Source of the DNA: Candidatus Nanopelagicales bacterium
GTDB lineage: Bacteria > Actinomycetota > Actinomycetes > S36-B12 > CAIYMF01
Reading direction: 5' to 3'
DNA length: 32,000 nt
NCBI GenBank assembly: GCA_050251215.1
Contig: JBFWNE010000003.1
Span: 20,704-52,703, forward strand
Translations under genes and position numbers: made by a program
Notes under the pieces: model-generated
Told to the model about the DNA's origin: nothing
The model's input: the letters and a program-made list of their open reading frames with translations, nothing else
The model's database searches: none
Shown: positions 4,126 to 20,648 of the stretch, piece after piece
How the letters are laid out: the number at the start of each line of letters is the position of its first letter
How positions within the stretch are numbered: position 1 is the stretch's first letter

Positions 4126-4293
4126 TTACCGCCCGCCCAGCAACTTCTTCACGGCGGCGTCCGAGGTGGAACGGCTGACCACCGAGGGTCGACTCTTGAA
4201 CGAGTCGGAGGACCCCTCAGCCGAGCGGACACGCGTGAAGGCAACGGGCTTGCGGCCCGTCACGACGCGCGGGGTCTCGCGCTTCTCAGCCAT
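4126..4293 (-). CDS. small basic hypothetical protein (55 aa)
   Basis: GGGAGGAAG SD directly upstream. The ATG overlaps the stop of the upstream membrane-protein gene by 8 nt (ATGGCTGA). Sequence MAEKRETPRVVTGRKPVAFTRVRSAEG... is basic and probably disordered. No family recognised. Confidence 0.4.
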   Translation of the reverse strand: MAEKRETPRVVTGRKPVAFTRVRSAEGSSDSFKSRPSVVSRSTSDAAVKKLLGGR

Positions 4294-5650
4294 GACTTCC
4301 TCCCAAGACATCACTGTACGTCCAGCCCCTGACGGTGGACGCCATGCTGACCGCGTCAATGGTCACCAGTAGCTGCACAGCGAACATCAAGGCACCGACA
4401 ACGCTTGCCAAGGTCCACCCGGCACCCGTCGCCGTGAGGACCGCCGACACGAACAGGGTGCTGCTGGTGGCCAGGAGGCAGCGCCGTGCCCGCCACAGCA
4501 CAAGCCCGACGAGGGCGTGCTCCGCCGGGCGGGCGAACCAGGCCGCCAGCAGCGCTGGCGCGGCCAGAAGAATGGCGGCCACAGAACCTGAGCGTCCCCC
4601 GTCACCGATGACGCTCCCCCACCAGTCGGCGCCGGCCAACGTCACCATGAACGGCAAGGTGAGGAGGGCGAGTCCGACGAGGCTGCCGAGCGCAGCGACG
4701 CTCACGAGCCCCCTGCGGTGGGGCATGAGCTCGACCCAAGCCTGGGCGTCGCTGGACCAGGGCTGCCGCGAGTAGGTCGCGACATGGGCGAGGTGACCGG
4801 GCATGCGACCGTCCCCGCTGGGATCGACTTCGGCGTGTTCGCCGTCGTCCTCGTCTTCGACCGGGGTCCAGTACTCCAGGAGCGTGAGTCTGCTGATCTC
4901 CAGCCCTTCTGGAGCGGCGACTTCCAGGTGAACGCTCTTGGCGACGCGCATCTGCGGCATGTCCAGGTCGATCACGGCCGGCAGCTCTCCGATCCGGCTG
5001 GGCGGGTCGAACGCCATGTCGTAGCTGACCTTGACGATGGTCCTCGTATCAACCCGTTCATACGGGATCTCAACGACGAACCAGAACTTGTCGGTGAACT
5101 CCGCGATGCCCCAGGCAAGGAGCTCGAGCTGGAACCTGCGGTCGTCCTCATCGGCGGGCAGGGCGTCGTGCCATTCGGCCAAGCGGCCGACCACCTCAGA
5201 GGCGGTCACCCTCGCGTCGGCGGGCTCGCCGTTCACAACGTCGCCGATCCGCGATTTCACCCACTCCAGATCCTCACCGGGGCGTCCTTCGAGGGCCTCC
5301 TCGGCGAGGCTCTCCAGGGCGTCGACAGCGAGCCGGGCGTTCTCCCCTCGCCTGAGGACCGGGAGAGCGCCGCCGCTCGCGTCCGCCACGTCCAGACGGC
5401 GCAGCGTCCCCTTGCTGATCAACGCCAACGGCACCAGCACCCGGTCCCGGGAGCCGGGCACGGCGTCGTGGCCCCGGAGGGTGAAGTCGAAGGAGATCGA
5501 CCGTCTGCTCTCGCCGGTGGGCAGGAACCGGATGGACTCGACCCGCCGGTCGATCCACTGATCGGTCGTCAGCAGAAGCGTGGCGAGCCTCTGCCCCCGC
5601 TGCGTAGGCGTCAGCGGCGTCGGCGGCCTCGCAGATGTCGGTACGGACAC
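4286..5650 (-). CDS. uncharacterised protein: about 330-aa N-terminal soluble domain plus about 4 C-terminal TM helices
   Basis: Long ORF with high GC3. A GTG at 5650 is preceded by GAGGAGGGGAAGGGGA; the track ORF extends to a GTG at 5692. C-terminal hydrophobic segments (LVSVAALGSLVGLALLTLPFMV, SVAAILLAAPALLAAWFA, TLFVSAVLTATGAGW, VVGALMFAVQLLVTI). No family recognised. Confidence 0.75.
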   Translation of the reverse strand: MSVPTSARPPTPLTPTQRGQRLATLLLTTDQWIDRRVESIRFLPTGESRRSISFDFTLRGHDAVPGSRDRVLVPLALISKGTLRRLDVADASGGALPVLRRGENARLAVDALESLAEEALEGRPGEDLEWVKSRIGDVVNGEPADARVTASEVVGRLAEWHDALPADEDDRRFQLELLAWGIAEFTDKFWFVVEIPYERVDTRTIVKVSYDMAFDPPSRIGELPAVIDLDMPQMRVAKSVHLEVAAPEGLEISRLTLLEYWTPVEDEDDGEHAEVDPSGDGRMPGHLAHVATYSRQPWSSDAQAWVELMPHRRGLVSVAALGSLVGLALLTLPFMVTLAGADWWGSVIGDGGRSGSVAAILLAAPALLAAWFARPAEHALVGLVLWRARRCLLATSSTLFVSAVLTATGAGWTLASVVGALMFAVQLLVTIDAVSMASTVRGWTYSDVLGGSHG

Positions 5651-5792
5651 GGCTCCCCTTCCCCTCCTCGGCACGACGCTAGCGCGCAGCACGGACGCCG
5701 AGGGGTCGACGGCGGCCTGGTCCTGGTCAGCGCCGCCTGCGACGGCTCATGACCGGGCGTGGCGAGGCTGGCAAGGTCTGGCGGCCCACCGC

Positions 5793-5850
5793 TCAGCGTC
5801 AAGGACGGACCCGGAGAAGTATTCGTAGCGGCGGTCGTCCTTGACGCTGA
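5793..5850. repeat. 15-bp perfect inverted repeat with a 28-bp AT-enriched spacer in the divergent region upstream of recombinase A
   Basis: TCAGCGTCAAGGACG (5793-5807) and CGTCCTTGACGCTGA (5836-5850). The spacer contains GAGAAGTATTCGTAG, unusually AT-rich for this DNA. The right arm ends 76 nt before the ATG at 5927. Confidence 0.5.
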
Positions 5851-5926
5851 CGTGGCGCCACCTGCACCGATGCCTCCCCCGCGCACTGTCCAGGCCACAA
5901 GCCCACGACACGGGAGGCGATCGGCC

Positions 5927-7672
5927 ATGACGACCCAGCCGCGCACGCGGAAGACCCACCGCAACGGCGGGCGCGCCCAGCTCCGGACGCGGTCCGCGCT
6001 GGTGGCCCTCGAGCCGGCCACGGCCGCCAGTCTGGAGGCCGAGCTCGTCCACGGAGCCGACGCCCCGTCCTTCGCGGCCACGGCCGCCGACGCGCTCATC
6101 GACTCCTACCTCGACGAGCACGGACGGCTGGTGCCCGCCCCGTCGGAAGCCCTGCTGCACCTGCCGCCGGAGCTGACCGAGGAGCAGCGGCAACGCCGCA
6201 TCGAGCGCAGCAGGTTCGTCGACATGATCCGGGCCGACGCCTGGGCCGACAGCACCCTCACCGCGTACGGGTGGCACGTCCGGGCCTGGCGCGCGTGGGC
6301 GCGCGAGGAGGGCGTTCCGGCGCTGCCCCTCAACCCGCTGGACGTCGCCCACCACCTGGTGGACTACGCCTTCCGCTGGACCGGCGACCAGCCGGAGCTG
6401 GACGAGGACGGCGAGCCCTGCCCGGCCGTGGCCGCCAGCACCATCAGCCAGCGCATCGCGGCGCTGAACAAGCTCGCGGAGTTCGTCGGCATCCCCCGGC
6501 CGGGAGACAACGAGGGCGTGGGCCAGCTCGTGCTGGGACTGCGGCGCCGGCTGCTCGTGGCACCGGAGAACGCCAAGGCCGCCCTTGATCGCCGGTCCCT
6601 GGACCGCTGCCTGGCGGCGACGACAGGGGTGCAGCTGGCAGCCGCCCGGCTGCAGGTCATGGTGCTGCTGCGGCACGCCGCCGGTTGCACCGCCGGGCAG
6701 CTGGCGCGGCTGCACTGGGCCGACGTGGCGTTCGCCGACGACGGCTCGTGGGCTGACGTGACGTTCACGGGAAGCCGGCGCCACGATCCAGGGCGCAGCA
6801 TCCGGCTGCACAGGCGCACCGGCGCGGAGACCTGCGCCGTGCGGGCTCTGGAGGACCTGTACCGGATCTCCCCCGGTCGGGGGTGGGTGCTGGCGCACGG
6901 CAGCGGTCGGGCGCTGACGCGCCAGGCGATCCATCTGGCCGTGACGACGGCGGTGGCCGCGCCCTGGGACGAGGTCCCTCGCCTGCCTCTCGTCGAGCTG
7001 CGCCGCGCCATCCCGATGGCGACCTCATGTGGCGCGTTCATGGCGGCGCGGGACGCGGCGCTTCTCGAGGTCGGCTTCATCACCGCGCTTCGCCGCTCCA
7101 ACCTCTCCGCCCTCAACTGGAGGGACGTCGTCGACCATGGCTGCGACGGCTTCGAGCTGCGGATCCGGCGCAGCAAGACCGACCAGGAGGGCCACGGCCG
7201 GTCGAAGTGGGTGCCGCAGGCGGAGCCCGGATCGACGGGGCCATGCCCGGCGTCGGCATTCCGCCGCTACCGCGCGGAGCTCGTGAAGTCCCTCGGTCGC
7301 GAGCCGAAGGGCGAGGAGCCCGTGTTCTGCGCGGCGCTGTCGAACGGCGCGCTCCGCCGCGACGGCGAGGGCCGGCCCTGTCGGCTGACGGGCGACGGCG
7401 TCAACGAGGTGGTGCAGCGGCTGGCCACTGCAGCCGGGCTCGCCGGCACGACGGTGAACGGGCGCCACCCCTACGGCGCCCACAGCCTGAGGGCCGGGTT
7501 CATCACCGAGGCTCTCCGGGACAACAAGCTCGCCATCGAGGACGTGCAGGAGGTCAGCGACCACCGCACCATCGCGATCCTGCTCGACTATCGCCGTGAG
7601 GTGAACGCCTCGCAGCGCAACGGGAGCAGGAAGATGGTTCAGGCACTCGGGTCGTCCAGCGGCAAGGCGTAG
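5927..7672 (+). CDS. tyrosine recombinase / integrase (large, 581 aa), here recombinase A
   Basis: GGGAGG SD 9 nt before the ATG at 5927. Catalytic signature in order: ALRRSNL (Arg), RRSKTDQ (Lys), GAHSLRAGF (HxxR), SDHRT (His), LLDYRR (Tyr). N-terminal SAM-like core-binding region. Confidence 0.9.
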   Translation: MTTQPRTRKTHRNGGRAQLRTRSALVALEPATAASLEAELVHGADAPSFAATAADALIDSYLDEHGRLVPAPSEALLHLPPELTEEQRQRRIERSRFVDMIRADAWADSTLTAYGWHVRAWRAWAREEGVPALPLNPLDVAHHLVDYAFRWTGDQPELDEDGEPCPAVAASTISQRIAALNKLAEFVGIPRPGDNEGVGQLVLGLRRRLLVAPENAKAALDRRSLDRCLAATTGVQLAAARLQVMVLLRHAAGCTAGQLARLHWADVAFADDGSWADVTFTGSRRHDPGRSIRLHRRTGAETCAVRALEDLYRISPGRGWVLAHGSGRALTRQAIHLAVTTAVAAPWDEVPRLPLVELRRAIPMATSCGAFMAARDAALLEVGFITALRRSNLSALNWRDVVDHGCDGFELRIRRSKTDQEGHGRSKWVPQAEPGSTGPCPASAFRRYRAELVKSLGREPKGEEPVFCAALSNGALRRDGEGRPCRLTGDGVNEVVQRLATAAGLAGTTVNGRHPYGAHSLRAGFITEALRDNKLAIEDVQEVSDHRTIAILLDYRREVNASQRNGSRKMVQALGSSSGKA

Positions 7673-9069
7673 CGCTCGACGTCGGCCGCCCGGCCGCGGG
7701 AGCGGTCGTACTTGGCCGTCGTCGTGATGCTCTCGTGGAAGGTCAGGTCCATCGCGATCTCCAGCAGGCTCAGACCTGCCTCGGAGGCGAGCGTGACGCC
7801 TGTCGCCCGCAGAGTGCGCGTGCTGACGCTGACCTGACGGCCGTCGCCAGCCAGGGCGGGGCCACCGGCGCTGCGGTACAGCGAGCGCAGCAGCTGCGAT
7901 GCGCCCTGGAGGGTCATCGGGGCGCCCAGGTCGGTGTCGCCGGCGAACACGTAGTCGTCGTCGCTCGCGCCCTGCCAGCGTCTCACCTCCACCTGGTCCC
8001 GGAGTGCACAGGCCGGGCAGTGGCCGCCGCACCGTACTCCGCCTGCGTCGGCGTGGAGGACCGGCTTGACGTTCGGCCGGCGCTTGCGCAGCCCGGCCGA
8101 CCGCTGGATCTTGGCGCCCTTGTCGAGGCCCATGCGGCACTCGTAGCCGTCGACCGTCTCGACGATGTCGATCATGCGGAGCGCGGCCATGTCCGCGTGA
8201 CGGTTGGCGGTGACGATGCCGACGAGCAGGTAGGCGCGGTGCCGGCGGCGCCGGGCGAGCTGCGGGTCGACCATGCGGAGCCACCAGGTCCAGTCGTCAT
8301 CGGACAGCGGCCAGGACGGGCTCGCGTTCGGGTTCGGCTGAGCGCCGACCGGCCGATGCGACCTGTCCCATGCCCGCTTGAGCGCGCGGCGGTCACAGCG
8401 CCGACCTGCCACCGCGTCCCCGGAGGGGTCGGCCAGAGGCAGACGCTCCTCGGGATCAAGGTCGAGAGCAGCGCAGAGATACCGGAAGCCCTCGGGATCG
8501 CGTTCGGCGTCGACGACGCCTCTCGTTCCCTCAGCCCGGATCGCGATGCCTCGAGGGTCTCGCCGGAAGGACGACCGCGCCAGCCGCTGGGCTTGGCCGC
8601 TCAGCGGGTCCCATCCCAGGTACCGGCTCACCACCAGGACGCCGCGACGCCTGCGGACTGCGGGGAGAAGCTCGACGTCGTCGGCGACGAGCGCAGCCAT
8701 GAGCTGGGCGACGTCCGCGGTGACAGCGTCCGTCCTCGGCGCCAGGCCCGGGGGCTTGCACCGACGCTCCGCAGCGAGGTACCGCCGGATCAGCGCTCCT
8801 CGGACGGTTACCCCGACCTCTCCGAGGACCGCGGCCACGGCGCAGACGTACCCCGCCTGCGTCTCGAACGCCCAACGCTCGCGTCCGGAGAACACGAACT
8901 CGAGCACCGTTCTCTCCGCTTCCCCGTCCGGAGTGCCCGCCCCGGGTATGCGGCGGTTGTTGGCGAGGCACCACAGCTGGAACCGCGCGAACTGGCCATG
9001 CTGCGCCTCGGTGGGTCCACCGGCTCGCACCTTGGCGATGACCTGGTCACGTGCGCCATCCCTAGTCAT
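7639..9069 (-). CDS. tyrosine recombinase family protein (476 aa), here recombinase B
   Basis: The ATG at 9069 overlaps the stop of recombinase C by 8 nt (ATGACTAG). C-terminal STRTLRATG (xxxR box), FHESITTTAKYDR (His...Tyr) and an upstream ANRHADMAAL Arg box. Confidence 0.85.
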   Translation of the reverse strand: MTRDGARDQVIAKVRAGGPTEAQHGQFARFQLWCLANNRRIPGAGTPDGEAERTVLEFVFSGRERWAFETQAGYVCAVAAVLGEVGVTVRGALIRRYLAAERRCKPPGLAPRTDAVTADVAQLMAALVADDVELLPAVRRRRGVLVVSRYLGWDPLSGQAQRLARSSFRRDPRGIAIRAEGTRGVVDAERDPEGFRYLCAALDLDPEERLPLADPSGDAVAGRRCDRRALKRAWDRSHRPVGAQPNPNASPSWPLSDDDWTWWLRMVDPQLARRRRHRAYLLVGIVTANRHADMAALRMIDIVETVDGYECRMGLDKGAKIQRSAGLRKRRPNVKPVLHADAGGVRCGGHCPACALRDQVEVRRWQGASDDDYVFAGDTDLGAPMTLQGASQLLRSLYRSAGGPALAGDGRQVSVSTRTLRATGVTLASEAGLSLLEIAMDLTFHESITTTAKYDRSRGRAADVERYALPLDDPSA

Positions 9070-10543
9070 GTCCCGCTCCGTCGCCGAGGCCGCTGAGAAG
9101 GCGCACGGCAGCACTCCTGCCCGAGTGCCGACCCGTGTAGCGCAGGGTCGTCTCGGCGTAGACCTGGCGCAGGCCTGACTGGATCGTCTCGAGGTCCCAG
9201 CCGTCGCGGTCGGCCTGGTTCCCGTAGCCGCGCCGGGTGCTGTAGGCCGAGTAGGTGCAGGGAATGCCCGCGAGCCGGCACAGCCGCTCGAGGTCGTGGG
9301 CAGCGAGCTTGACCAGGTCCTTGCTCGCCTCACCCGACTGAAGCCGCGCGAGGATGAGCGGTCCGCCGCGCCCGACTCGGGCATCGCGAACGCACAGATA
9401 CTCCGCGAGGGCGTCGCAGACGATCTGGTGGTTCTCCCAGCTCAGCGCCCGCTCCACCTTCTTGTCGCCGCGCGGGTCATCCTTCGTGGAGAGGAGCCGC
9501 AGGAACCAGGCGCCTTCATCGGGCGAGAGCCAGACGCACTCGCGGGGAAGGCCGTCGAGGTCGCCGGCCATGCGCAGACCGAGGCTCCAGGCCAGGGCCA
9601 CCCAGGCGCGGGCGCGGACGATGATCAGGGCATCGCCTCGCAGGTCGGCTTCGGCCATGAGGACGAGGCCTCGCCGCAGCCCCGCCAGCTCCCATGCGGT
9701 CAAGTCGTGCCGGGCCTGCAGGACGATGGCTTGGCCGCGCGGATGCGTGGCCAAGCCGGCCCAGCCGCGGTTGCGCAGGTTGAGGAAGACCTGCTTGATG
9801 CTCGCCGGGCCCTCCGCGAACAAGACCGATGACGGGTCCAGGTTCTCGGCGACCACCTTGACCGCGCACGCGGTGCAGTCCCAGGGAACCCCTCGTGCGC
9901 GCGACTCGTGATCGCACAGAAGCACGTGGCCGGCGACGCTGACGCCGCCCTCTACAATGGCAACGTCCGCCGCCACCAACCTTCTGAGCTGCGGGACGGT
10001 GAACCCGGCATCGAGCGAGAGCAGCACAGCAGCGCGCTTGGCATCAGCCGCCGGCGTCCTCGGGACCGAGACCTCCATCAGCGTGCGCATCGCCGCGCGC
10101 GTGAGAGGCACGGCGCGACGGTCCTCCGGCTCGGCACCCGCCTGATCGTCCTGCTCGGCCAGCCGCTTCTGATACCCGCGACGCAGTCGCGTCCAGTCCG
10201 CCGCGTGCGCCCGCGACTCGATCGGCAGCGGCTCATCCCCCAGGACATGGCGCACCGCAGACAGCAGCCCCAGGACGCTGTTCCACTGGTACAGCGAACC
10301 GTCTGGCTTGCGCCGACCGAGCAGCGCGACGTAGGCCTCGTACGGTGCCGCGGCTGGGTCGTATCCCAGGGAACGACAGTGACGAATCCACGACCGGAAG
10401 CGCTCGTCGTAGTCGCTGAGCGTGCGGTCCTGCAGCCCGCGGCTGGCCAGGAAGCGCTCGAGCTCCTCGGCGAAGGCGGCTTCGTCCTCGATCTTGGGGG
10501 GCTGGAAGTAGGGCTTGCGGCCGCGGCCGCCGTTGCGTGTCAT
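9062..10543 (-). CDS. tyrosine recombinase family protein (493 aa), here recombinase C
   Basis: N-terminal SAM-like domain. C-terminal GLRMAGDL (Arg), LSTKDDP (Lys), YSTRRGYG (xxR box) and ETTLRYTG (Tyr). High GC3. Confidence 0.8.
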   Translation of the reverse strand: MTRNGGRGRKPYFQPPKIEDEAAFAEELERFLASRGLQDRTLSDYDERFRSWIRHCRSLGYDPAAAPYEAYVALLGRRKPDGSLYQWNSVLGLLSAVRHVLGDEPLPIESRAHAADWTRLRRGYQKRLAEQDDQAGAEPEDRRAVPLTRAAMRTLMEVSVPRTPAADAKRAAVLLSLDAGFTVPQLRRLVAADVAIVEGGVSVAGHVLLCDHESRARGVPWDCTACAVKVVAENLDPSSVLFAEGPASIKQVFLNLRNRGWAGLATHPRGQAIVLQARHDLTAWELAGLRRGLVLMAEADLRGDALIIVRARAWVALAWSLGLRMAGDLDGLPRECVWLSPDEGAWFLRLLSTKDDPRGDKKVERALSWENHQIVCDALAEYLCVRDARVGRGGPLILARLQSGEASKDLVKLAAHDLERLCRLAGIPCTYSAYSTRRGYGNQADRDGWDLETIQSGLRQVYAETTLRYTGRHSGRSAAVRLLSGLGDGAGHD

Positions 10544-10715
10544 GCCGAGGACCGTCCGCGCCGAGGCTCAGTCCGCAACCAGCACGACCCCGCATGGCGT
10601 GCGGCGTCCGGCATGGAACGGCAACCCCGAGTTGGCCCCCTTGTTGCGTCCCCCGGATGAGCCACAAGGGGTTCCTCACGAGCGACATGGAGTCGCCGAA
10701 ACGAGAGGAGCTCCG

Positions 10716-11135
10716 ATGAGCAACCGTCGGGCGCAGGGTGCCGAGCACCCCGACTACCCCACCGTGATCGGCCACGAGAGGCCGATCTGGACCACCGTCC
10801 AGACGGACGGGGCGTTCATCAGCATCACCGGCATGAGCGTGTTCGACCCGTGGCTCGCCGGGATCGCGGAAACCCACCGGGACGATCTGGCCGGATGGCT
10901 CTACCGGACGCTCATCCGCGGTGCGGACCTCGAGCAGCAGCGACTGCTCGTTGGCGCAGCGGAATCGGCAGCTGTCGCCGCCGTACGCCTTCGCCAGACC
11001 CTCGCCGTCATGTCGCAGTCACCGACGGCGAACCATCGCCTGCAGCAGCATGCGGAGAAGTCCCGCGACGACCTGGTGAATCGGCTGCTCCGCTTCGAGG
11101 AGCTTGCGGCAGCTCTCCGCTCAGCAGACGCCTGA
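10716..11135 (+). CDS. hypothetical protein (139 aa), divergent from recombinase C
   Basis: GAGAGGAG SD 5 nt before the ATG at 10716. High GC3. Predicted helical C-terminal half. Followed immediately by a perfect hairpin terminator. Confidence 0.6.
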   Translation: MSNRRAQGAEHPDYPTVIGHERPIWTTVQTDGAFISITGMSVFDPWLAGIAETHRDDLAGWLYRTLIRGADLEQQRLLVGAAESAAVAAVRLRQTLAVMSQSPTANHRLQQHAEKSRDDLVNRLLRFEELAAALRSADA

Positions 11136-11141
11136 GAACGC

Positions 11142-11173
11142 AACGTGGGGCCGGCTTGTGCCGGCCCCACGTT
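11142..11173 (+). terminator. perfect 14-bp GC-rich stem-loop terminator
   Basis: AACGTGGGGCCGGC, loop TTGT, GCCGGCCCCACGTT. Begins 7 nt after the TGA at 11133-11135. Confidence 0.7.
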
Positions 11174-11214
11174 GATCCTCCGAGAGGGCCGAGCCAGTTC
11201 CGCACGGGCAGGCA

Positions 11215-11598
11215 TCAAGCCGGATCGCGGTCGTCAACCGCTCCGCCGGCTCCTCGAGAAGGCCGTAGTTCGGGTGGGAACCGGAAACCAGGGACTGTCC
11301 CGCCGTTGCAGACAGCGACGACATCGCGCAGCGCCAGGTCGACGCGGCCGGACAGGAGCGCTGCCGCGTAGCCCTCGGCGTGAGACGGGATCGTGCCTTC
11401 CTCGACCCAGCGGCGCGCGAGGATCGCGCACGCCGTCGGGTGCCCGTCCACCCGCTGGCGGGGCTGTTCGGATCCCGTCTCGTCGACCATGCGGTCACCG
11501 TTGCAGCTGCCGGGGACATCTCGCGACGGAACGCGTGGTGCGCCCTGCTGGCGCCCCGCCCGGGCGAACAGTGACCCGCGCGCCACGAGGCGCTGCAT
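11215..11598 (-). pseudogene. possible short ORF or remnant of a decayed gene (127 aa frame)
   Basis: GC3 is high over most of the frame (GHPTACAILARRWVEEGTIPSHAEGYAAALLSGRVDLALRD) but falls at the 3' end. No SD. Protein-like stretches in a second minus-strand frame upstream and downstream suggest frameshifts. Confidence 0.25.
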
Positions 11599-11904
11599 CC
11601 CGGCGCGACGCCCGGGCCCGGCCAGCCACCGGGGAGACGCCCGTCAGAGGGGTTCTCGTCGACGTGCCCGATCAGTGGGCCGCGTGCACGTCGGGTCGAC
11701 GCCGAACGGTCGGGGACATGCACTTCGGGGCCCGGGTGCCGCCTGACCGCAGGGCAGGCACCGGCGGCGGTAGCCGCCCAGGGGAACGGCCGGGCCGGCG
11801 GGCCCGCCCTATGCCTCGTAGGGAAACGTCGGTCAGCGCCTCACCCGATCGCCACCACCGGCCCCTCAGGCGCGCGACGGGCGCACGTTGGCCAGGCTCG
11901 TGGA

Positions 11905-12885
11905 TCACTCGGCGGCAGGGAAGAAGCTCTCGAGATCGTCATAGGCGGCGACCACAGGACCCGGAGCTTGGAGTGCGATGTGGTCGCCTTCGACGGCCTC
12001 GCGCATACCGCCGATGTCAGGGAAGAGGACTCTGCGGCTGCGGTTGTACGTGGACTCGAGGTGGGTCCTCATCGGCTTCTTGACCGTCGTGGGGATCACG
12101 AGGACGCACATAGGCAAGCTGATGGGCTTCCCGGGCCCCTTGGCGGCGCCGAAGAGGCTCTTGATCGTGGTGGCGGTCGGCAGGCGGCCTGGAGGTCGGT
12201 GCAACCCGTCCATGCCCGGCACGGATGCGGCCAGGGGGACCACGCCGGAGAGGAACAGCCCTTCTTGCGCCTGCATGCGGGCGTCGCGGATCGTCGGCGT
12301 GACCAGGAAGGGGGCCTCGTCCCGGGCGGCGGTGTTCAACGCAACGCGTAGCGGCCAGCCCAACGGGTCTGCCAGTCCCCCGTACGTGCCGGAGCCACCG
12401 GGCTCAACGGTCTGGAACTCGGGCAGGTCGGTGACGTCGAACGCGATCAGCGCGCCTGCCGCATCGCCGGTCTTGCTCGTGCGCTGGCAGGCGAACCAGA
12501 GCGCGGTGATGGGGTTGGACGTCACGTCGAGCAGCCTTGTGGGGATGCCGTGGTGCTGAAGTTGAGCGAGCACGTGGAGATCGGATCCCCAGGGGACGTC
12601 GAGGGCCACTCCCCACTGGCGCGCGGTGCGGATGAGGGCAAGCTCGCGCTCCCTCAGTTCGAGTTCGCTCGGCGGTCGCCCCAGCTCCTCGGTCAGTGCA
12701 CGGACGAGCGAGGAGGAGATCCGGTATCGGCTGTCCGGTACGCCGCGCCAGACGTATCTGCGCCCCGCCGCGAGGGTGCCGATGCGGGACACACCACGCA
12801 TCAGCTCGTCGATGGAGGAGACCTTGTAGCCGAAACCGGTGTCGACCCAGGCCTTCGGGCCCATGCCACCGGTCAGGTCGGTCAC
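11905..12885 (-). CDS. FRG domain-containing protein (326 aa)
   Basis: YVWRGVPDSRYRISSSL ((F/Y/W)RG motif). LAQLQHHGIPTRLLDVTSNPITALWFAC (the QHxGxPTRLLD core of the FRG domain). RMQAQEGLF. The GTG start overlaps the upstream stop (GTGA, 12882-12885). Confidence 0.85.
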   Translation of the reverse strand: MTDLTGGMGPKAWVDTGFGYKVSSIDELMRGVSRIGTLAAGRRYVWRGVPDSRYRISSSLVRALTEELGRPPSELELRERELALIRTARQWGVALDVPWGSDLHVLAQLQHHGIPTRLLDVTSNPITALWFACQRTSKTGDAAGALIAFDVTDLPEFQTVEPGGSGTYGGLADPLGWPLRVALNTAARDEAPFLVTPTIRDARMQAQEGLFLSGVVPLAASVPGMDGLHRPPGRLPTATTIKSLFGAAKGPGKPISLPMCVLVIPTTVKKPMRTHLESTYNRSRRVLFPDIGGMREAVEGDHIALQAPGPVVAAYDDLESFFPAAE

Positions 12886-13787
12886 GCGGATGCTCCGCCC
12901 TCGGCCGCGATCCGGTGTCGGAGCTGGTTGAGGGTGGGTCCGTCCTCACCGACGCGCCAGGCGTACCAGCCGTCGTAGGACACGACTTCTGCGGCGGCCA
13001 TCGCGGCGCCCGAGGGGCTGGCGTGCCGGGTTCCGTCGGAGAGGGTGATGACGCCATCGGCACCCAGTTCGGCGTCGTACCTGGTGCCCTTGCGGGGGCG
13101 GCGCCAGACGAGAGGCGCGGGCGTCTGCAGTGTCGCGGCGACATCGGCGAGGGTGACTTCGAGGAAGGCGCGGTCGTCCGTGGCCGCCGCCTCCGGCGCG
13201 TCGTCGGCGGGTGCCGCCGCGTCGGTGGCCTCCGGCTCGGTCTCCCACTCCACGTTGAGCACGCGGCGGCGGGATGCGTCGACGTAGAACGCGGCGCGGA
13301 TCTTCTGGACCGGCAGGCGGTGCTGGATGAGGAAGTCCAGTGCGTTGGCGGTCCTGGCATCGAAGCTGCGCGCGACGAGGACGAGCTTGGGGTCGCGCTG
13401 GACGAGGACGGGCGTGCTGGCTCCGGTGAACTCGGCCCAGTCCTCCCAGAAGGCGGCTTCTCCACCGTGGTAGAGCGAGGCGATCTGGTCCAGGTTGGTG
13501 GTTCGGGCCCAGCCGGCGTACTCCAGGGCCTGGGCGAGTTGGGAGCGGTCGATGTCGCGCTTGACTTCGATGACCACCACGCGGCCTGCGGGGTCCAGGG
13601 CCAGGATGTCCGGGATGAGTCCGCCGGGCAGGGGTGCTTGGCGACGGACCCGGAACAGGTTCTGGCCGGTCAGTTCCTCCAGGTTGTCCCAGAGCAGCGT
13701 CTCGATCTCGGACTCGTACACGTTCGCAGGGACGTGCTGGCGGCTGAACTGGACGAGATCGTCGTCGCGCAGATCGAAGATGGGCAC
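12882..13787 (-). CDS. NucS/DUF91-like PD-(D/E)xK nuclease fused to a RAMA/DUF4357-like C-terminal domain (301 aa)
   Basis: PDILALDPAGRVVVIEVKR (D...ExK nuclease core) and SQLAQALEYAGW. An acidic low-complexity linker follows. C-terminal motifs: DGVITLSDGTRHASPSGAAMAAA...YDGWYAWRV...TLNQLR. GGGGGAG SD before the GTG at 13787. Confidence 0.85.
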   Translation of the reverse strand: MPIFDLRDDDLVQFSRQHVPANVYESEIETLLWDNLEELTGQNLFRVRRQAPLPGGLIPDILALDPAGRVVVIEVKRDIDRSQLAQALEYAGWARTTNLDQIASLYHGGEAAFWEDWAEFTGASTPVLVQRDPKLVLVARSFDARTANALDFLIQHRLPVQKIRAAFYVDASRRRVLNVEWETEPEATDAAAPADDAPEAAATDDRAFLEVTLADVAATLQTPAPLVWRRPRKGTRYDAELGADGVITLSDGTRHASPSGAAMAAAEVVSYDGWYAWRVGEDGPTLNQLRHRIAAEGGASA

Positions 13788-14567: not shown

Positions 14568-17500
14568 TCACGCCAGTCCTGCGTAACGGTCGACGAAGGC
14601 GATGAGGCGGTCGAGGACGGTGCGCTTCTTGGTGGCGTGGCCGGCGTCGGGAGCGAACCGGGACACCGGGGGCAGGATGCGGGTGATCGCTGTCCCGGTC
14701 GTAGGGACTGCTCCATCTCGGAACGCGTCGTTGACGAACGCGCGGGTCTCCTCCGGGCGGAGGCGCTCGCTGGTGATGATGTCCTCGAGCTCCGCCGTGC
14801 GGCGCGCGGCGAGGAAGGCCTGCCACTGGTCGCGGGTGTCGCCAGTGATCGAGACCTGCTCGATGAAGGCAAGGATGAGGTCGCGCTTGTTGCGCAGCGA
14901 CGGGCTGGAGTCGATGGCGCGCGTGACTGCCTCGGAGTCGATGACGCGGTCCTCGCCGTCGCCGTGCTCGGTGCGCCAGGTGTCGATGAGGGCGAGGATG
15001 TAGTCGACGCCGACCTCGACCTGCTTGATGAGCTCGATCTCGAAGACGACGTCGTCGTTGATCGACGCCTTCTGCGCGGCGTCGACGGTGCGGAACTCGG
15101 CGTAGAGGTCGAGGTAGACCGACCGGTAGTCCTGGAACTGCCGGGGGCTCAGCGGGTCATGCCCGGTGAACTCGTCGAACGCGGTCAGGATGTTGCGCAG
15201 CCGCAGCAGCTGCCCGAACAGGGCGATGAACTCCTTCTGCGCCGCCTCCCCCACGATCACCTGCCCGAGCGGGAACCGGGCCAGCAGGTCGGTCACGACC
15301 CGGTCGTACTCGGCGTAGTAGTCGGCGTAGGGCTTGAGCAGCACGATGCCGCGGGCGTCGCGGTTGCCGAACAGGGCGAGCGCGTCGTTGGTGGCGTCCT
15401 CGAGGTCGCGGAAGGAGACGATGTTGCCGTAGGTCTTGACCGAGTTCAGGATCCGGTTGGTGCGCGAGTAGGCCTGGATGAGGCCGTGGGCGCGGAGGTT
15501 CTTGTCGACCCACAGGGTGTTCATGGTGGTGGCGTCGAACCCGGTGAGGAACATGTTGACCACGATGGCCATGTCCAGCTCGCGGGACTTCAGCCGGCCG
15601 GCGAGGTCCTTGTAGTAGCCCTGGAACCCGTCCCCGCCGGTGTCCCACGAGGTGCCGAACATGTCGTTGTAGTCCTGGATCGCGTCCTCGAGGAAGTCGC
15701 GGGAGGGCTGGTCGAGCCCGGCGGTGTCCAAGCCCTCCTCCTCGACGAAGGTTTCGGCCTCGGCCTCGTTGGCGGCGTAGGAGTAGATCAGCCCGATCCG
15801 CAGCCGCCGGTAGCCGGGGTCGGCGGCCTCGCGGGTGCGCTGCGCGGTCTCGAACGCGTTGTAGTACCGCTTCGCCGCGTCGATGGAGGCGGTCGCGAAC
15901 AAGGAGTTGAAGCCGGACAGGCGCTTGTCGCCGAGACGGTAGGTGGCGGTGCGCTTGGTCTTCTGGTCGTAGTGGTCGAGCACGTAGTCCACGACCTGGC
16001 CGAGCCGGGTGGGGTCGAGCAGGGCGCGCTCGGTGTCGATCGCGGACACCTGCGCGTCGGGAAGGGACGCCGGGGCCTTGATGGTGTTGACGTAGTCGAT
16101 GCGGAACGGCAGGACGTTCTTGTCGTTGATCGCGTCGACGATCGTGTAGGTGTGCAGCCGGTCGCCGAAGGCCTGCTCCGTGGTGCGCAGCGCGACCGTG
16201 CCGGTGGTGCCGGCGTTCTCGGCGAAGATGGGCGTGCCGGTGAACCCGAACAGGTGGTAGCGGGTGAACGCCTTCTCGATCGCGGTGTGCATCTCCCCGA
16301 ACTGGGAGCGGTGGCACTCGTCGAAGATCAGCACCACGTGCCCGGAGTAGATGGCGTGGCCGGCGTTGGTCTTCACGAACGTCGCGAGCTTCTGGATCGT
16401 GGTCACGATGATCCGTGACGACGGGTCTTCCAGCCGGCGCTTGAGGTGGGCGGTGTTCGTCGTGCCGTCAACGGCGCCCTTCTCGAACCGGTCGTACTCC
16501 CGCTGGGTCTGGTAGTCCAGGTCCTTGCGGTCGACCACGAACAGCACCTTGTCCACTCCGTCGAGGCGGGATGCCAGCTGCGCGGCCTTGAACGACGTCA
16601 GCGTCTTGCCCGACCCGGTCGTGTGCCAGACGTACCCGCCGGCGGCGACCGTGCCCAACTGCTTGTGGTTGGTGGACGTGGCGATTCGCTGGAGGATCCG
16701 CTCGGTGGCCACGATCTGGTAAGGGCGCATGACCAGCAGCTTGCGGTCGACGTCGAAGACGCAGTACCGGGTCAGGAGGTTGAGCAGCGTGTGCTTGGCG
16801 AAGAACGTGGCAGTGAACCCGGTCAGGTCCGTGATGGGCCGGTTCTCAGCATCAGCCCACCAGGAGGTGAACTCGAAGCTGTTCGACGTCGTCCGCTTCC
16901 CGCGCCGGCTTCCCGACTGCTCCGCGAGGTGCCCAGCCCGGGTGGTGTTGGAGTAGTACTTCGTCAACGTGCCGTTGCTGATCACGAACAGTTGCACGTA
17001 CTCGAACAGGCCCGAGCCAGCCCAGAACGAATCCCGCTGGTAGCGGTCGATCTGGTGGAACGCCTCCCGGATATCCACCCCGCGGCGCTTGAGCTCCACG
17101 TGCACCATCGGCAGCCCGTTGACCAGGATCGTGACGTCGTATCGGTTCGACCGGGCCGCGCCACCGGCCTGGTCGACCTCGTACTGGTTGATCACCTGGA
17201 GCCGGTTGTTGTGCACGTGCACCTTGTCCAGGAGGTACACGTTCTTGCTCGTGCCGTCGTCGCGCTTGAGGACCTGGACGTGATCGGTCTGGATGCGGGA
17301 CGTCTTCTCGACGATGCCCTCGTTGACCCCCGCGATGCACTGGGAGAAGAACCGGTCCCACTCGGCGTCGCTGAACACGAACCCGTTCAACGCTTCCAGC
17401 TGCAGACGGAGGTTCCGCACCAGGTCGGCCTCGGACGCGATCGACACGTACTCGTACGCCTGGCCTCGCAGTTGCGAGACCAGCGCCGCCTCCAGATCCG

Positions 17501-17636
17501 CCTCGGACTGGTACGCCGACGCTTCGGAAGTCGACGGGTCGAACCGCGCCACCACGGTCGACTCGTCGCTGACCGAGATCGCCTCGAACCGCGCACCCGA
17601 CCCCGGAGCTCCCAGCTCCTCGAAGCCCTCTGCCAT
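14568..17636 (-). CDS. hsdR: Type I restriction enzyme R subunit (HsdR, family IC-like)
   Basis: 1022 aa. N-terminal nuclease region RYDVTILVNGLPMVHVELKRRG. SF2 helicase motifs (HTTGSGKT, LIFDECHRSQ, FGFTGTP, QAYSRTNR). Its ATG overlaps the hsdS stop (TGATG). Confidence 0.97.
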   Translation of the reverse strand: MAEGFEELGAPGSGARFEAISVSDESTVVARFDPSTSEASAYQSEADLEAALVSQLRGQAYEYVSIASEADLVRNLRLQLEALNGFVFSDAEWDRFFSQCIAGVNEGIVEKTSRIQTDHVQVLKRDDGTSKNVYLLDKVHVHNNRLQVINQYEVDQAGGAARSNRYDVTILVNGLPMVHVELKRRGVDIREAFHQIDRYQRDSFWAGSGLFEYVQLFVISNGTLTKYYSNTTRAGHLAEQSGSRRGKRTTSNSFEFTSWWADAENRPITDLTGFTATFFAKHTLLNLLTRYCVFDVDRKLLVMRPYQIVATERILQRIATSTNHKQLGTVAAGGYVWHTTGSGKTLTSFKAAQLASRLDGVDKVLFVVDRKDLDYQTQREYDRFEKGAVDGTTNTAHLKRRLEDPSSRIIVTTIQKLATFVKTNAGHAIYSGHVVLIFDECHRSQFGEMHTAIEKAFTRYHLFGFTGTPIFAENAGTTGTVALRTTEQAFGDRLHTYTIVDAINDKNVLPFRIDYVNTIKAPASLPDAQVSAIDTERALLDPTRLGQVVDYVLDHYDQKTKRTATYRLGDKRLSGFNSLFATASIDAAKRYYNAFETAQRTREAADPGYRRLRIGLIYSYAANEAEAETFVEEEGLDTAGLDQPSRDFLEDAIQDYNDMFGTSWDTGGDGFQGYYKDLAGRLKSRELDMAIVVNMFLTGFDATTMNTLWVDKNLRAHGLIQAYSRTNRILNSVKTYGNIVSFRDLEDATNDALALFGNRDARGIVLLKPYADYYAEYDRVVTDLLARFPLGQVIVGEAAQKEFIALFGQLLRLRNILTAFDEFTGHDPLSPRQFQDYRSVYLDLYAEFRTVDAAQKASINDDVVFEIELIKQVEVGVDYILALIDTWRTEHGDGEDRVIDSEAVTRAIDSSPSLRNKRDLILAFIEQVSITGDTRDQWQAFLAARRTAELEDIITSERLRPEETRAFVNDAFRDGAVPTTGTAITRILPPVSRFAPDAGHATKKRTVLDRLIAFVDRYAGLA

Positions 17637-18865
17637 CAGGCCACCCGTTCGGGCAGAGAGAGGAGCCGATCGCGGTAGTGCTCGTACTGCGCCCGTCGAG
17701 CAGCGATCTCCGCCGGCAAGCCGGACGACAGATCGTTGACCAGCGCATCGAAGGCGTCGAGAGCGGCCGCGATGCGCGCCTGCTCGGGCAGTGGGGGGAC
17801 GGGTAGGACCAGCGAGCGAACGATGTCCGCGTTCAGGTTCTGGACCGTGCCTGCCCCTGCACGAGAGGCCATCTCGTTGTACATGGCCGTGGAACGGAGC
17901 AAGTGGTAGAGGAAGTCGGGGACGAAGCTACTCTCGAAGTCCTTGATCGCCAGCCAGCCATCGTGGATGCAGCCTTCGATGGCCACGACGTAGGGGCGCC
18001 CGAAGCTCATCGAGTTGGACAGCACGAAGTCACCGGGCTTCACCCGTCGAGACTTCTCCGCGCCAGCTTCCGTGATGCGCTCGGCCGTCTTGGTGATGAA
18101 CTTGCCGTCGGCGGGGACGTCACCGATCTTGATCCAGTTGACACCATCCTGTCGGTCGGTGATGAACGCCTGGATGGGGCGTGGCGAAGCACCTCGGACG
18201 ATCGTGGCGATGTCTCCGAAGGGACGCTTCGGCACGTCGGAGCCTCCCGAGTAGTCGAGTAGAACGTCTCGGTAGTAGACGTACTGACGACGACGAGCGG
18301 AGAGCTCACATGCAAGCTGCGCGACCAACGTCTCCATCGCCTCTAGCACGTCGACTATCTCCCGTTGTACCTCGACGGGCGGTACGGGGATCACGATGCG
18401 AGCAAGCTGGGAACCCGACACCCGCCTCACCTTCGTGCCGCTGACGAACGGTGCCTTCTGCGACTGAAACCGCCGCGACTGGAAGCAGTAGGCGACGTAC
18501 CTCGGATCCAGCGTGTGGCGATAGATGTAGGCATCGCCGCTGACTGCGATCTCGTCAGCACCGATCCAAGCGACGGCCTTGCAGACGTCCTCATCATTCT
18601 CGCTAGTCGTCGCGATCACCAGGTCACCAGGCTGGGCCCGGCGGAGGCCTGCGCCAACTACGGGGTCTACGAAGGACACAGTCTCGCTGGCCGATGTTCC
18701 ATAGGCGGTGAAGACCTGTCCGTAGTGGATAGCACCCATCCCGCTCGCCTGCAGATCCTTCTTCTGCAGTCCGTTCCCACGGATGAACTCGCCAAGATCC
18801 CCGAGCGGTCTGTAGTGGACCCCATCCGGGCAGAGCCGCGCGATCAAGTCGTCGATGTGACTCAC
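17636..18865 (-). CDS. hsdS: Type I restriction-modification specificity subunit (HsdS), two target-recognition domains
   Basis: 409 aa. Two variable domains are separated and followed by conserved helices (IPVPPVEVQREIVDVLE...RRRQYVYYRDVLL and LPVPPLPEQARIAAALD...RRAQYEHYRDRLL). ATGA overlap with hsdM. GC content is lower than the flanks. Confidence 0.95.
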   Translation of the reverse strand: MSHIDDLIARLCPDGVHYRPLGDLGEFIRGNGLQKKDLQASGMGAIHYGQVFTAYGTSASETVSFVDPVVGAGLRRAQPGDLVIATTSENDEDVCKAVAWIGADEIAVSGDAYIYRHTLDPRYVAYCFQSRRFQSQKAPFVSGTKVRRVSGSQLARIVIPVPPVEVQREIVDVLEAMETLVAQLACELSARRRQYVYYRDVLLDYSGGSDVPKRPFGDIATIVRGASPRPIQAFITDRQDGVNWIKIGDVPADGKFITKTAERITEAGAEKSRRVKPGDFVLSNSMSFGRPYVVAIEGCIHDGWLAIKDFESSFVPDFLYHLLRSTAMYNEMASRAGAGTVQNLNADIVRSLVLPVPPLPEQARIAAALDAFDALVNDLSSGLPAEIAARRAQYEHYRDRLLSLPERVA

Positions 18866-20430
18866 GCCTGGCCGCTCTCGAGATCCGCAACTACGGCGTC
18901 GACCTTGGCACGGAGCTCCGCCTGACGCGCGACGATGCGAGCGATCTCCTCGTTCAGCTCCGTGATGTCGACGGCATCGCGGGTGTCCTCGGCCTCCACG
19001 TAGGAGGAGACGGCGATGTTGTAGCCGTTCCCTGCGATGGTGGCGTGATCGACGAGTGCGGCCATGTGCGGTATGTCGGCGCGGTTGGTGAAGGCGTCAA
19101 GGATGGCCCGCTGGTGCTCATCGGTCAGCTTGTTCTTGTTGCCCTGGCGCACGAACTGACCGGACCCGTCGATGAAGAGGATCTTGTTGTCAGTCTTCGA
19201 CTTCCTGAGCACGATGATGCAGGTCGCGATCGTCGTGCCGAAGAATAGGTCGGGGGGAAGCTGGATGACCGTGTCGACGTAGTTGTTGTCGACGAGGTAC
19301 TGGCGGATCTTGGCCTCGGCGCCTCCGCGGTAGAGCACTCCGGGGAACTCGACGATCGCCGCGGTCCCGTTGACCGCGAGCCAGTGCAGGATGTGCATCG
19401 TGAACGCGAGGTCGGCCTTGCTCTTGGGCGCGAGCACGCCCGCCGGCGCGTAGCGGGGGTCGTTGATGAGCAGCGGGTTGGCGTCGCCTTCCCACTTGAT
19501 GCTGTACGGCGGGTTGGACACGATCGCCTCGAACGGCTCGTCGTCCCAGTGAGCAGGGTCGGTGAGGGTGTCGCCGTGGGCGATGTCGAACTTCTCGAAG
19601 TTGATGTCGTGCAGGAACATGTTGATGCGGCACAGGTTGTAGGTCGTGAGGTTGATCTCCTGGCCGAAGTAGCCCTGGCGCACCTTGTCATGGCCGAGGA
19701 CCTTGTCGAACTTCAGCAGCAGAGATCCCGAGCCGCAGGCAGGGTCGTAGACCTTGTTGACCTCGGTCTTGCCGACCACGGTGATGCGGGCGAGGAGCTC
19801 GGAGACCTCCTGCGGCGTGTAGTACTCCCCGCCGGACTTGCCGGCGCTAGAGGCGTACATCGCCATGAGGTACTCGTAGGCATCGCCGAACGCGTCGATG
19901 GTGTTGCCGGCGTGGCCGAGCTTGAGATCGCCGATCGCGTCGAGAAGCTTGACCAGCTTCTCGTTGCGCTTCGCGACGGTCGGGCCGAGCTTGGGCGAGT
20001 TCACGTCGAGGTCGTCGAACAGGCCCTTGAAGTCGTCCTCTGAGTCGGTGCCCACCGCGGACGCCTCGATCCGGGTGAACACCCTCGACAGGGTCTCGTT
20101 GAGGTCCTGGTCGTGACGTGCCCGGGCTCGCACGTTGACGAACAGGTCGGAGGGAAGGATGTAGAAGCCCTTCTCCTTGACCGTCTCGGCGCGGCCGAAC
20201 TCGGCCTGGTCGTCGGGCAGTGCGGCGTAGCTGAACTGCTCGTTGCCGGCGCGGTGTTCCGCGTCGTCGAGGTAGACGGTGAGGTTCTCCGAGATGAACC
20301 GGTAGAACAGGATCCCGAGCACGTAGGCCTTGAAGTCCCACCCGTCGACGCTGCCCCGCAGATCGTTGGCGATCCGCCAGATCGTCTTGTGCAGTTCGGC
20401 CCGCTCGGTCTCCTTGGTCGCCCCGTTCAC
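18862..20430 (-). CDS. hsdM: Type I restriction-modification N6-adenine DNA methyltransferase subunit (HsdM)
   Basis: HsdM N-terminal domain (IWRIANDLRGSVDGWDFKAYVLGILFYRFISE). AdoMet motif DPACGSGSLL. Catalytic NPPY (IVSNPPYSIKW). AGGAGGGG SD 8 nt before the GTG at 20430; the track ORF extends to 20577. Confidence 0.96.
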   Translation of the reverse strand: MNGATKETERAELHKTIWRIANDLRGSVDGWDFKAYVLGILFYRFISENLTVYLDDAEHRAGNEQFSYAALPDDQAEFGRAETVKEKGFYILPSDLFVNVRARARHDQDLNETLSRVFTRIEASAVGTDSEDDFKGLFDDLDVNSPKLGPTVAKRNEKLVKLLDAIGDLKLGHAGNTIDAFGDAYEYLMAMYASSAGKSGGEYYTPQEVSELLARITVVGKTEVNKVYDPACGSGSLLLKFDKVLGHDKVRQGYFGQEINLTTYNLCRINMFLHDINFEKFDIAHGDTLTDPAHWDDEPFEAIVSNPPYSIKWEGDANPLLINDPRYAPAGVLAPKSKADLAFTMHILHWLAVNGTAAIVEFPGVLYRGGAEAKIRQYLVDNNYVDTVIQLPPDLFFGTTIATCIIVLRKSKTDNKILFIDGSGQFVRQGNKNKLTDEHQRAILDAFTNRADIPHMAALVDHATIAGNGYNIAVSSYVEAEDTRDAVDITELNEEIARIVARQAELRAKVDAVVADLESGQA

Positions 20431-20648
20431 GTTTCGCTTCCCCTCCTGGCCGGCGTCACCGGCACCACTCCCTGGGCCGCTCGACCGTGATACCTCACAA
20501 GCGCGTCGCGATCGAGTGGAACTCCGGCGCGCGGTCGACGGACCCCTGGTTCCGCCGAACACCCTAGCCACGCGCAACGACAGTCCAGCGGATCACTCGC
20601 CAGCAACCCGCGGTGCACCACCGTCACGGGCGAGCGCGGGGTGAGTGA

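Follow-up and report, generated by a model that had tools for sequence, protein, structure and literature searches.

What kind of genetic unit is formed by three large tyrosine-recombinase genes that are packed together without spacers and do not all point in the same direction? Such a cluster is present in a stretch of 32,000 nt of high-GC actinobacterial DNA (about 70% GC) from Candidatus Nanopelagicales bacterium, which is called the window below. Recombinase A (581 aa) is encoded on the forward strand at positions 5927-7672, and recombinases B (476 aa, 7639-9069) and C (493 aa, 9062-10543) are encoded on the reverse strand. The answer proposed here, which is considered somewhat probable, is that the genes form a self-contained module of about 4.9 kb (approximately 5793-10680) and represent, within Actinomycetota, a family of three-recombinase elements that has not been described before; such elements would move or capture DNA. 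The existence of such an element family is argued from the co-occurrence and conserved layout of the three genes, the variable junction between A and B, the paralogy of the proteins, a site array upstream of A with constrained noncoding DNA, the boundaries of the conserved unit and the turnover of its flanks.

The three open reading frames (ORFs) were found exactly where a preliminary description of the locus had placed them. The GC content at the third codon position is high in all three frames (0.83-0.91), and a GGGAGG Shine-Dalgarno sequence lies 9 nt upstream of the ATG of A. The stop codon of C and the start codon of B share an 8-nt overlap (ATGACTAG, 9062-9069), through which B is translationally coupled to C, and the 3′ ends of A and B converge with an overlap of 34 nt (7639-7672). 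The layout is not an assembly artefact, an alternative that the preliminary description had raised, because independent assemblies carry the same DNA: the whole trio is present in two NCBI assemblies and one Logan assembly at 99.96-100% identity, and the window is 99.995% identical to contig JBFWXV010000014.1 of GCA_050187095.1. Further Logan contigs and contigs from ENA cover the trio in part. In GCA_050187095.1 (L093), the region 11482-12905, which corresponds approximately to window positions 7639-9069, has B annotated only as a 211-aa fragment; its DNA is essentially identical to that of the window and other assemblies call the 476-aa product, and the missing full call shows that annotation has passed over a fast-evolving recombinase. 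Another observation concerns contigs from ERZ27283023 and SRR6837584, which stop at 7578 or begin exactly at 7586 and so adjoin the codon of the catalytic Tyr555 of A (7589-7591). These breaks probably come from a mixture of strains or from the same reads assembled twice. The metagenome contig ends at 3848, 3889, 7578/7586 and 10783 were considered as element junctions and rejected as uninformative, due to mixed strains and possibly shared reads.

The proteins A, B and C are homologues of tyrosine recombinases, because their family profiles, together with structural models of A and C, match Cre or XerD. In searches of the PDB with family profiles, A found Cre with an E-value of 2e-18, B found Cre with 7e-8 and C found XerD with 8e-5, and IntI4 was only a weak match. 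The AlphaFold models of A and C (pLDDT 84, pTM 0.68-0.69) have Cre as their best fold match, with TM-scores to the target of 0.71-0.77 for A and 0.62-0.66 for C. General domain libraries recognize less of this relationship. A is the sole member of the trio that passes the cut-off of Pfam PF00589 (E 1e-9), B stays below the threshold (E 0.012) and C has no match in Pfam; NCBIfam and PADLOC scans of the three proteins added nothing to the recombinase assignment.

The active sites are conserved to different degrees. In A, the residues R390, K417, H519, R522, H546 and Y555 are invariant across 31 homologues. In B, the family-invariant residues are R290, K317, R418, R421 and Y454, of which R418 occupies the position of the first His (His289 of Cre); the window protein has His at the second-His position (Trp315 of Cre), which is not invariant in the B family. 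The corresponding positions of C are R324, K354, Y434 (first-His position), R437 and Y469, and its second-His position holds Gln in the window and His in most relatives. The first Arg, the Lys, the second Arg and the Tyr are kept in all three families. A, B and C are all recombinase-fold proteins which retain the nucleophilic Tyr and both Arg residues. The catalytic boxes reported for all three proteins in the preliminary description are recognizable, but Pfam sees only that of A clearly, and the question of intact residues raised there received a divided answer: Tyr and Arg are in place in every protein, and the first His is missing from B and C.

All three proteins share an enlarged architecture. 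A is composed of a Cre-like core-binding domain, a degenerate N-terminal half of a catalytic domain at residues ~222-365, and a full catalytic domain. The segment LLRHAAGCTAGQLARLHWADV... of the degenerate part is conserved family-wide and aligns with box I of Cre, with Thr at the position of Arg173. Comparison of the profile of the real catalytic N-terminal half (366-470) with that of residues 222-365 gave an hhalign probability of 91% (E 1e-6), and the model of A contains a second helix-helix-three-strand-helix unit at the degenerate segment. Judged by these profiles, the extra catalytic-like segment, correctly suspected from the start to precede the real one, is a true internal partial duplication. 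The model and profile of C contain the same extra unit, and B has an equivalent conserved stretch between the core-binding and catalytic domains. B and C also carry invariant Cys/His clusters, located in B inside the catalytic domain (H339, C347, C351, C354) and in C at C210, H212, C223 and C226, within the motif CDH..GVPWDCxAC. These clusters may bind metal. In hhalign comparisons over 416-441 columns, the families match each other with E-values of 2e-24 (A-B), 2e-20 (A-C) and 2e-7 (B-C), by which they are identified as paralogues over nearly their full length.

The trio is not restricted to the window lineage. For A, about 60 full-length homologues with identities of 32-52% were found, with Modestobacter, Nocardioides and Geodermatophilus as named hosts, and among 1.84 billion proteins C is represented by 69 clusters at E ≤ 1e-30, counted as 50%-identity representatives. 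B is the fastest-diverging member. The layout A→ ←B ←C is present in every locus with enough sequence, which amounts to 11 lineages besides that of the window; the convergent arrangement, for which a survey of genomes had been proposed at the outset, thus recurs across genera. These lineages are L003 and the P0016 locus (two related Nocardioides), L086 (Geodermatophilus), L108 (N. panacihumi), Modestobacter (L084 and L001), L087, L088/89, L090, L097/98, L106 and L107, the others including metagenomes. The identities of B and C in L106 and L107 were confirmed with hidden Markov models. A scan of the genome collection with the A alignment was swamped by shorter Cre-like relatives and gave a single close locus (L004), and a scan of metagenomes with the C alignment gave five loci only.

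That close locus, in Blastococcus mobilis (L004, 9455-14575), has a unidirectional large trio A→C→B→ with proteins of ~514-606 aa from stop to stop. It represents a sister lineage in which all three proteins match PF00589, and it differs from the convergent form only by inversion of the C-B block. A conserved fourth gene was sought among the neighbours of six loci and none was found; the sole common neighbour is an HTH_58 gene, shared by two loci at different positions. Its homologues (L001 11997-12335 and L086 9476-9742, 58% identity) lie 5′ of A on the same strand in Geodermatophilus and 3′ of A on the opposite strand in Modestobacter. Such a placement is what an inversion of the A gene with respect to HTH_58 would produce.

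The position at which A and B meet is variable. In the window it is an overlap of 34 nt, that is, an empty slot at 7639-7672, where relatives hold between 0.45 and 12.7 kb. The two genes are separated by 1 nt in L003 and the P0016 locus, by 5 nt in L088/89, by 8 nt in L087, by 10 nt in L097 and by 151 nt, containing a hairpin, in L090. The slot is therefore empty, or holds the 151-nt hairpin, in seven lineages, and it is filled in five. In Geodermatophilus it contains 454 nt with a 105-aa ORF, in N. panacihumi 1.5 kb with three small ORFs and in L107 5 kb with a YobI-type ATPase. The insert of L106 (7.4 kb) encodes Mrr, a Gabija-like pair of UvrD-helicase and AAA_15 proteins and an HTH protein, and that of Modestobacter (12.7 kb) has about 13 genes, including DUF4238, DUF2442 and HTH_58. 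Defence-type genes, namely the Gabija-like pair, Mrr and the YobI ATPase, thus occur in the three largest inserts. No repeated sites bounding the A-B inserts were seen. The suggestion of the preliminary description that the module carries the neighbouring defence genes is not supported in this form: where relatives have cargo, it lies between A and B, and this place is empty in the window.

Upstream of A lies an array of three short sites (5793-5892), which constitutes the putative left boundary of the module, based on its motif and on pairwise homology. The sites are GCGTCAA at 5796-5802 (forward strand), TTGACGC at 5841-5847 (reverse strand) and CTGTCCA at 5886-5892 (forward strand), and the first two sit in a perfect 15-nt inverted repeat (5793-5807 / 5836-5850). 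The motif [CG][CT]GTC[AC]A (SYGTCMA) occurs 29 times within 220 nt 5′ of A in 10 loci, against 2.5 expected, an enrichment that is post hoc because the motif was derived from the same data. In 8 of the 10 loci a forward site is followed by a reverse site 45-47 nt away, and 6 of these 8 add a third, forward site 45-57 nt further on. The exceptions are L097, with the opposite order, and L089, with two forward sites only. With protein identities as low as 32%, a geometry this regular can hardly be put down to chance. Between L106 and L107, the DNA from site 1 to the start codon contains blocks of 84% and 91% identity (44 and 23 nt), whereas the A proteins are 52% identical; compared in this way, the array appears to be a cis-element more conserved than the protein. 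The motif is weakly enriched at the 3′ junctions of A and B and upstream of C (about 4 matches against about 1.5 expected), and the array typical of the convergent family is absent 5′ of A in the Blastococcus locus. The array probably consists of recombinase-binding sites.

A related observation was made in L106 (9922-9945) and L107 (9921-9944), where the array includes a compact inverted repeat TTGAC-N8-GTCAA, with arms GCGTTGAC / GCATTGAC in L106 and a geometry like that of a lox/dif-type core site. In L086, Modestobacter and L108, a distance of 22 nt separates the same TTGAC/GTCAA arms.

The limits of the conserved unit are visible in pairs of related loci. In both the L106/L107 and the L086/Modestobacter pairs, DNA similarity begins at site 1 of the array and is absent further upstream. 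On the C side, the similarity of the L086/Modestobacter pair begins about 90 nt 5′ of C, at an inverted repeat. The conserved module of related pairs therefore stops ~125-170 nt 5′ of A and ~90 nt 5′ of C, and by analogy the unit in the window would be discrete and extend over approximately 5793-10680. The region 5′ of C (10544-10680) is a candidate right end of low confidence, drawn from the L086/Modestobacter pair only; it contains the conserved CGGACGGT directly before the ATG, GCGGCGTCCGG at 10601-10611 and the inverted repeat CCCCTTGT / ACAAGGGG at 10636-10643 and 10665-10672. The same analogy with related pairs would place the FRG, RAMA and type I restriction-modification (R-M) genes of the window outside the module.

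Beyond these limits the flanks change. Nearly all trio loci are located among defence genes, and their neighbours include parts of Lamassu and Cap4, type ISP and type I R-M, Wadjet-like JetABC, CBASS SMODS/E1 and DISARM/Druantia-type helicases. An example of flank turnover is provided by the two Nocardioides, L003 and the P0016 locus, where the A proteins are 89% identical and the trio occupies the same chromosomal site, with different defence genes outside both ends. In N. panacihumi, the trio is a compact island amid metabolic genes, beside an ImmA/IrrE-type regulator (HTH_3 + Peptidase_M78).

In the mechanism considered most likely, and also the most economical one, A, B and C would act as a hetero-oligomer in site-specific recombination. 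A is transcribed towards the coupled C-B operon, and the array 5′ of A, a discrete left end, would be bound by the recombinases. The complex would then relocate the module inside defence islands, or take DNA segments in and out there. The A-B junction of relatives is a variable slot, with anti-phage genes in the larger inserts, and the window has the cargo-less form. Such a mode of action would resemble that of RIT (recombinase-in-trio), GInt or Tn554-type elements, and the module would belong to none of them.

The closest single-protein comparison is Cre of phage P1, which is the best profile and fold match for A, the match of B by sequence and that of C by fold. The two-domain clamp of core-binding and catalytic domains is shared, and A has the complete R-K-H-R-(H/W)-Y active site. 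In contrast, Cre is a single 343-aa enzyme that acts as a homotetramer on loxP, whereas A, B and C always occur together, carry an inserted degenerate catalytic N-terminal half of ~130-150 residues and, in the case of A, have ~90 further N-terminal residues. B and C differ also by their Cys/His clusters and the replaced first His.

Transposons with tyrosine recombinases are grouped into integrative and conjugative or mobilizable elements (ICE/IME), SE, GInt, RIT and Tn554 (PMC10214605, PMC3414803, PMC5385486, PMC8138268). None of these five recognized groups has the layout A→ ←B ←C, GInt/SE and Tn554 being set apart on the basis of their descriptions, and literature text searches gave no description of this layout. 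RIT genes are unidirectional, overlap by 4-8 bp, are bounded by terminal inverted repeats and are often present in multiple copies (PMC3414803, PMC10214605). The likeness to the module lies in three co-occurring adjacent paralogues, a short start/stop overlap (here C/B), the lack of a further conserved gene and the compact cargo-less form; transposition of RIT elements has likewise never been reproduced experimentally (PMC10214605). The differences are that A converges on B, that an extra subdomain is present, that relatives hold DNA between A and B, and that neither terminal inverted repeats nor extra copies were seen.

RIT elements (ritA-ritB-ritC) occur, for example, on Cupriavidus necator pHG1 and in C. 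metallidurans CH34. As a reference, the four copies on pHG1 were used, which are unidirectional and encode proteins of 303-420 aa, compared with 476-581 aa here; the preliminary description was thus right in setting the trio apart by orientation and protein size. The A, B and C profiles scored at most 29 bits against RitA, RitB and RitC of pHG1, with no one-to-one pattern. With Rit profiles built from 3-4 pHG1 sequences only, the best hhalign cross-match was A-RitA (E 5e-10), while RitA, RitB and RitC match among themselves with E-values from 1e-14 to 1e-21 (RitA-RitC 1e-21). A/B/C and RitA/B/C look like separate sets of paralogues, as far as these profiles go. Membership of the canonical RIT group was rejected on account of the convergent layout, the larger proteins and the missing correspondence to Rit subfamilies. 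As a side observation, pHG1 (L099, 27443-31200) carries two adjacent 626-aa genes beside its RIT copies, annotated as 'integrase' and 'hypothetical'. They are unlike A, B and C and may be another pair of large recombinases.

GInts (ginABCD) and strand-biased circularizing elements (SE, intA-tfp-intB-srap) are similar to the module as multi-recombinase systems that delimit islands with adaptive cargo, and their large recombinases have been modelled on Cre/Xer (PMC5385486, PMC10214605). They differ in being a four-gene unidirectional operon with a small fourth gene (ginD/srap), for which there is no conserved counterpart here, and in having a third protein (GinC/Tfp) without catalytic residues, whereas Tyr is kept in all three proteins of the trio. 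Their cargo lies 3′ of the operon and not between convergent genes, and in confirmed surveys their hosts are Gamma- and Betaproteobacteria, while those of the trio are Actinomycetota. The Tn554 family shares site specificity, more than one tyrosine recombinase, an occurrence in Actinobacteria and abnormally long recombinases, the actinobacterial Tn554-like pairs being composed of one protein of 611-828 aa and one of ~350 aa (PMC3414803). It is distinguished by two recombinases with TnpC in a unidirectional order, against three in convergent order here with no TnpC-like gene. The long Tn554-type protein has an N-terminal extension of more than 400 aa, where the trio has an internal duplication, and such elements are common on plasmids, while plasmid homologues are lacking for C and only partial for A and B.

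In integrons and Tn4430, several recombinase motifs lie directly 5′ of the recombinase gene, at attI and at the resolution site, respectively, with variable genes beyond. The multi-motif array 5′ of A may be comparable in this respect. However, those systems use one recombinase, and integron cassettes carry attC, while no such sites were seen at the inserts here. Membership of the integrons was rejected, as the locus has three Cre-like enzymes, no single IntI-type integrase and no repeated sites at the inserts.

Several results weigh against a mobile or DNA-capturing element. Of the distinct mobile module suggested by the preliminary description, the distinct family has held, while the signs of mobility looked for in the form of repeats, a second copy or an empty site have not appeared. 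With the first catalytic His replaced in B and C, and Gln at the second-His position of the window C, possibly only some of the three proteins cleave DNA. The motif of the array is not mirrored 5′ of C (2 observed, 2.2 expected), and the array itself may simply be a promoter with an operator. Repeat searches for terminal repeats around the trio in the window and five relatives gave chance-level matches only; no flanking inverted repeats above chance were found in these six loci, although short or degenerate ones could escape detection. BLAST comparison of the regions 5′ of A with those 5′ of C, within and between loci, showed no shared repeats. A 19-nt inverted match in the 5′ coding ends of A and C (5960-5978, 10519-10537) was dismissed as chance, being unreproduced in other loci. 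The retention of the trio at one site in two Nocardioides fits a stable resident equally well. All contigs with the proteins of the window, down to 98% identity, share one context, and when C and the left-neighbour protein were looked up by exact sequence, this context was obtained and no alternative. The positional polymorphism envisaged earlier was not observed among near-identical strains; neither an empty site nor a circular junction was seen, and there is one A homologue per named genome, with no second copy. No relatives were found in the viral contigs searched, and on plasmids C has no homologue, while A and B have partial or marginal matches only.

Part of this evidence would be accommodated by a chromosomally fixed, integron-like capture platform, which does not itself move and would assemble the surrounding defence island by taking circular segments in and out at adjacent sites, namely the array 5′ of A, the A-B junction and possibly the region 5′ of C. 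The shared position of the trio in the two Nocardioides with different outer genes, the variable A-B content, the array placed like attI directly 5′ of a recombinase gene, the core-like TTGAC-N8-GTCAA of the L106 and L107 arrays, and a module that is apparently single-copy and carried neither on plasmids nor on viral contigs all agree with it. Yet no attC-like repeated sites bound the inserts, the motif is only weakly enriched at the 3′ junctions of A and B and upstream of C, and the compact island of N. panacihumi amid metabolic genes resembles an inserted element, and such a platform is regarded as unlikely. A non-mobilizing role of domesticated recombinase-fold proteins, in defence or regulation, is improbable. 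The nearly constant company of defence genes (Lamassu, CBASS, Wadjet-like, R-M and Gabija-like), the stable position in related Nocardioides and, in B and C, the unusual active-site residues together with the Cys/His clusters would be consistent with this role, but A, B and C match no PADLOC model, each of the three families conserves the Tyr and both Arg as would be expected of working recombinases, and discrete boundaries with variable inserts are hallmarks of mobile or recombination platforms.

Inversion has to be considered in two forms. The trio could be a DNA-inversion (phase-variation) switch that flips A, the C-B block or a neighbouring defence gene such as hsdS, for which the single inversion separating the convergent and L004 forms, the HTH_58 placement fitting an inverted A, the 15-nt perfect inverted repeat of the first two array sites and the type I R-M genes near C in three loci could be cited. 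The window, however, contains a single hsdS and no spare half-genes were seen, many trio loci are without type I R-M, none of the segments is bracketed by long inverted repeats, a single orientation is found in every assembly of the window lineage, and three large recombinases are excessive for a simple switch; this makes it a quite improbable explanation. A rearranged or degenerate canonical RIT with one gene inverted is largely refuted and has very little probability left. Although there are three adjacent tyrosine-recombinase genes, two with a short overlap, and the unidirectional Blastococcus relative differs by the C-B inversion only, the low profile scores against RitA/B/C, the closer hhalign relationship of A, B and C to each other, the protein sizes and the lack of detected terminal inverted repeats all contradict it, and the convergent layout in 11 lineages is no one-off event. 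The three-recombinase element family set out above remains the preferred reading. Its more specific form, only tentatively advanced, is a new actinobacterial platform in which three co-evolving Cre-like paralogues, with an asymmetric multi-site end, would capture, hold and exchange anti-phage cassettes in the convergent slot; it would amount to an integron-like or transposon-like shuttle of defence genes that arose independently of integrons, RIT, GInt and Tn554.

The family is relevant for the assembly and turnover of defence islands, especially outside Proteobacteria, for which it offers a comparative system with natural empty and loaded forms. Multi-recombinase elements such as RIT, GInt, SE and Tn554 are poorly understood, and the need for three recombinases is unexplained. 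If active, the trio would be a fifth or sixth kind of tyrosine-recombinase mobile platform, a marker for new defence genes in Actinomycetota and a source of Cre-like enzymes with unusual architecture. If immobile, it would still be a conserved and unannotated protein trio, as existing annotations of its members read 'hypothetical protein' or generic 'integrase' only.

The surroundings of the trio in the window are of mixed character. No tRNA or non-coding RNA landmarks are present in the window, and a scan for consensus promoters and terminators found nothing. Divergent from A lies an unassigned gene on the reverse strand (4286-5692), whose product of 454-468 aa has a hydrophobic C-terminal part; this protein has no match in Pfam, NCBIfam or PADLOC and is not conserved beside the trio elsewhere. 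On the other side, a poorly coding stretch of 1.36 kb with small ORFs (10544-11904) follows. It includes a 139-aa ORF (10716-11135), which is divergent from C, lacks any family match and has GAGGAG as a strong ribosome-binding site, and after it a hairpin (11139-11173) with a perfect 14-bp stem, AACGTGGGGCCGGC ttgt GCCGGCCCCACGTT, and no T tract. The ORF and the hairpin are not conserved next to C in other loci. Further on are an FRG-domain gene (PADLOC PDC-S15) and a RAMA-domain gene (PDC-S11/S14), which overlap by 4 nt (11905-13787), and a complete type I R-M operon (14568-20577) encoding HsdR (1022 aa), HsdS (409 aa) and HsdM (571 aa). The operon lies in a GC trough (0.63-0.66, against 0.70-0.75), and these genes together look like a recently acquired defence block beside the trio.

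A further arrangement was observed in many loci of Rhodococcus, Gordonia, Mycobacterium and Pseudonocardia (L005, L006, L012, L014, L020, L053, L067 and others, with the match at ~10001 in each), where a tandem pair of genes is present. The first gene encodes a Cre-like recombinase of 400-450 aa with the motifs HSLRAGF and RSKTDQEG, and the second a protein of ~340 aa that is recombinase-like by iterated profile only and is missed by Pfam. Such a pair may be another uncharacterized multi-recombinase module.

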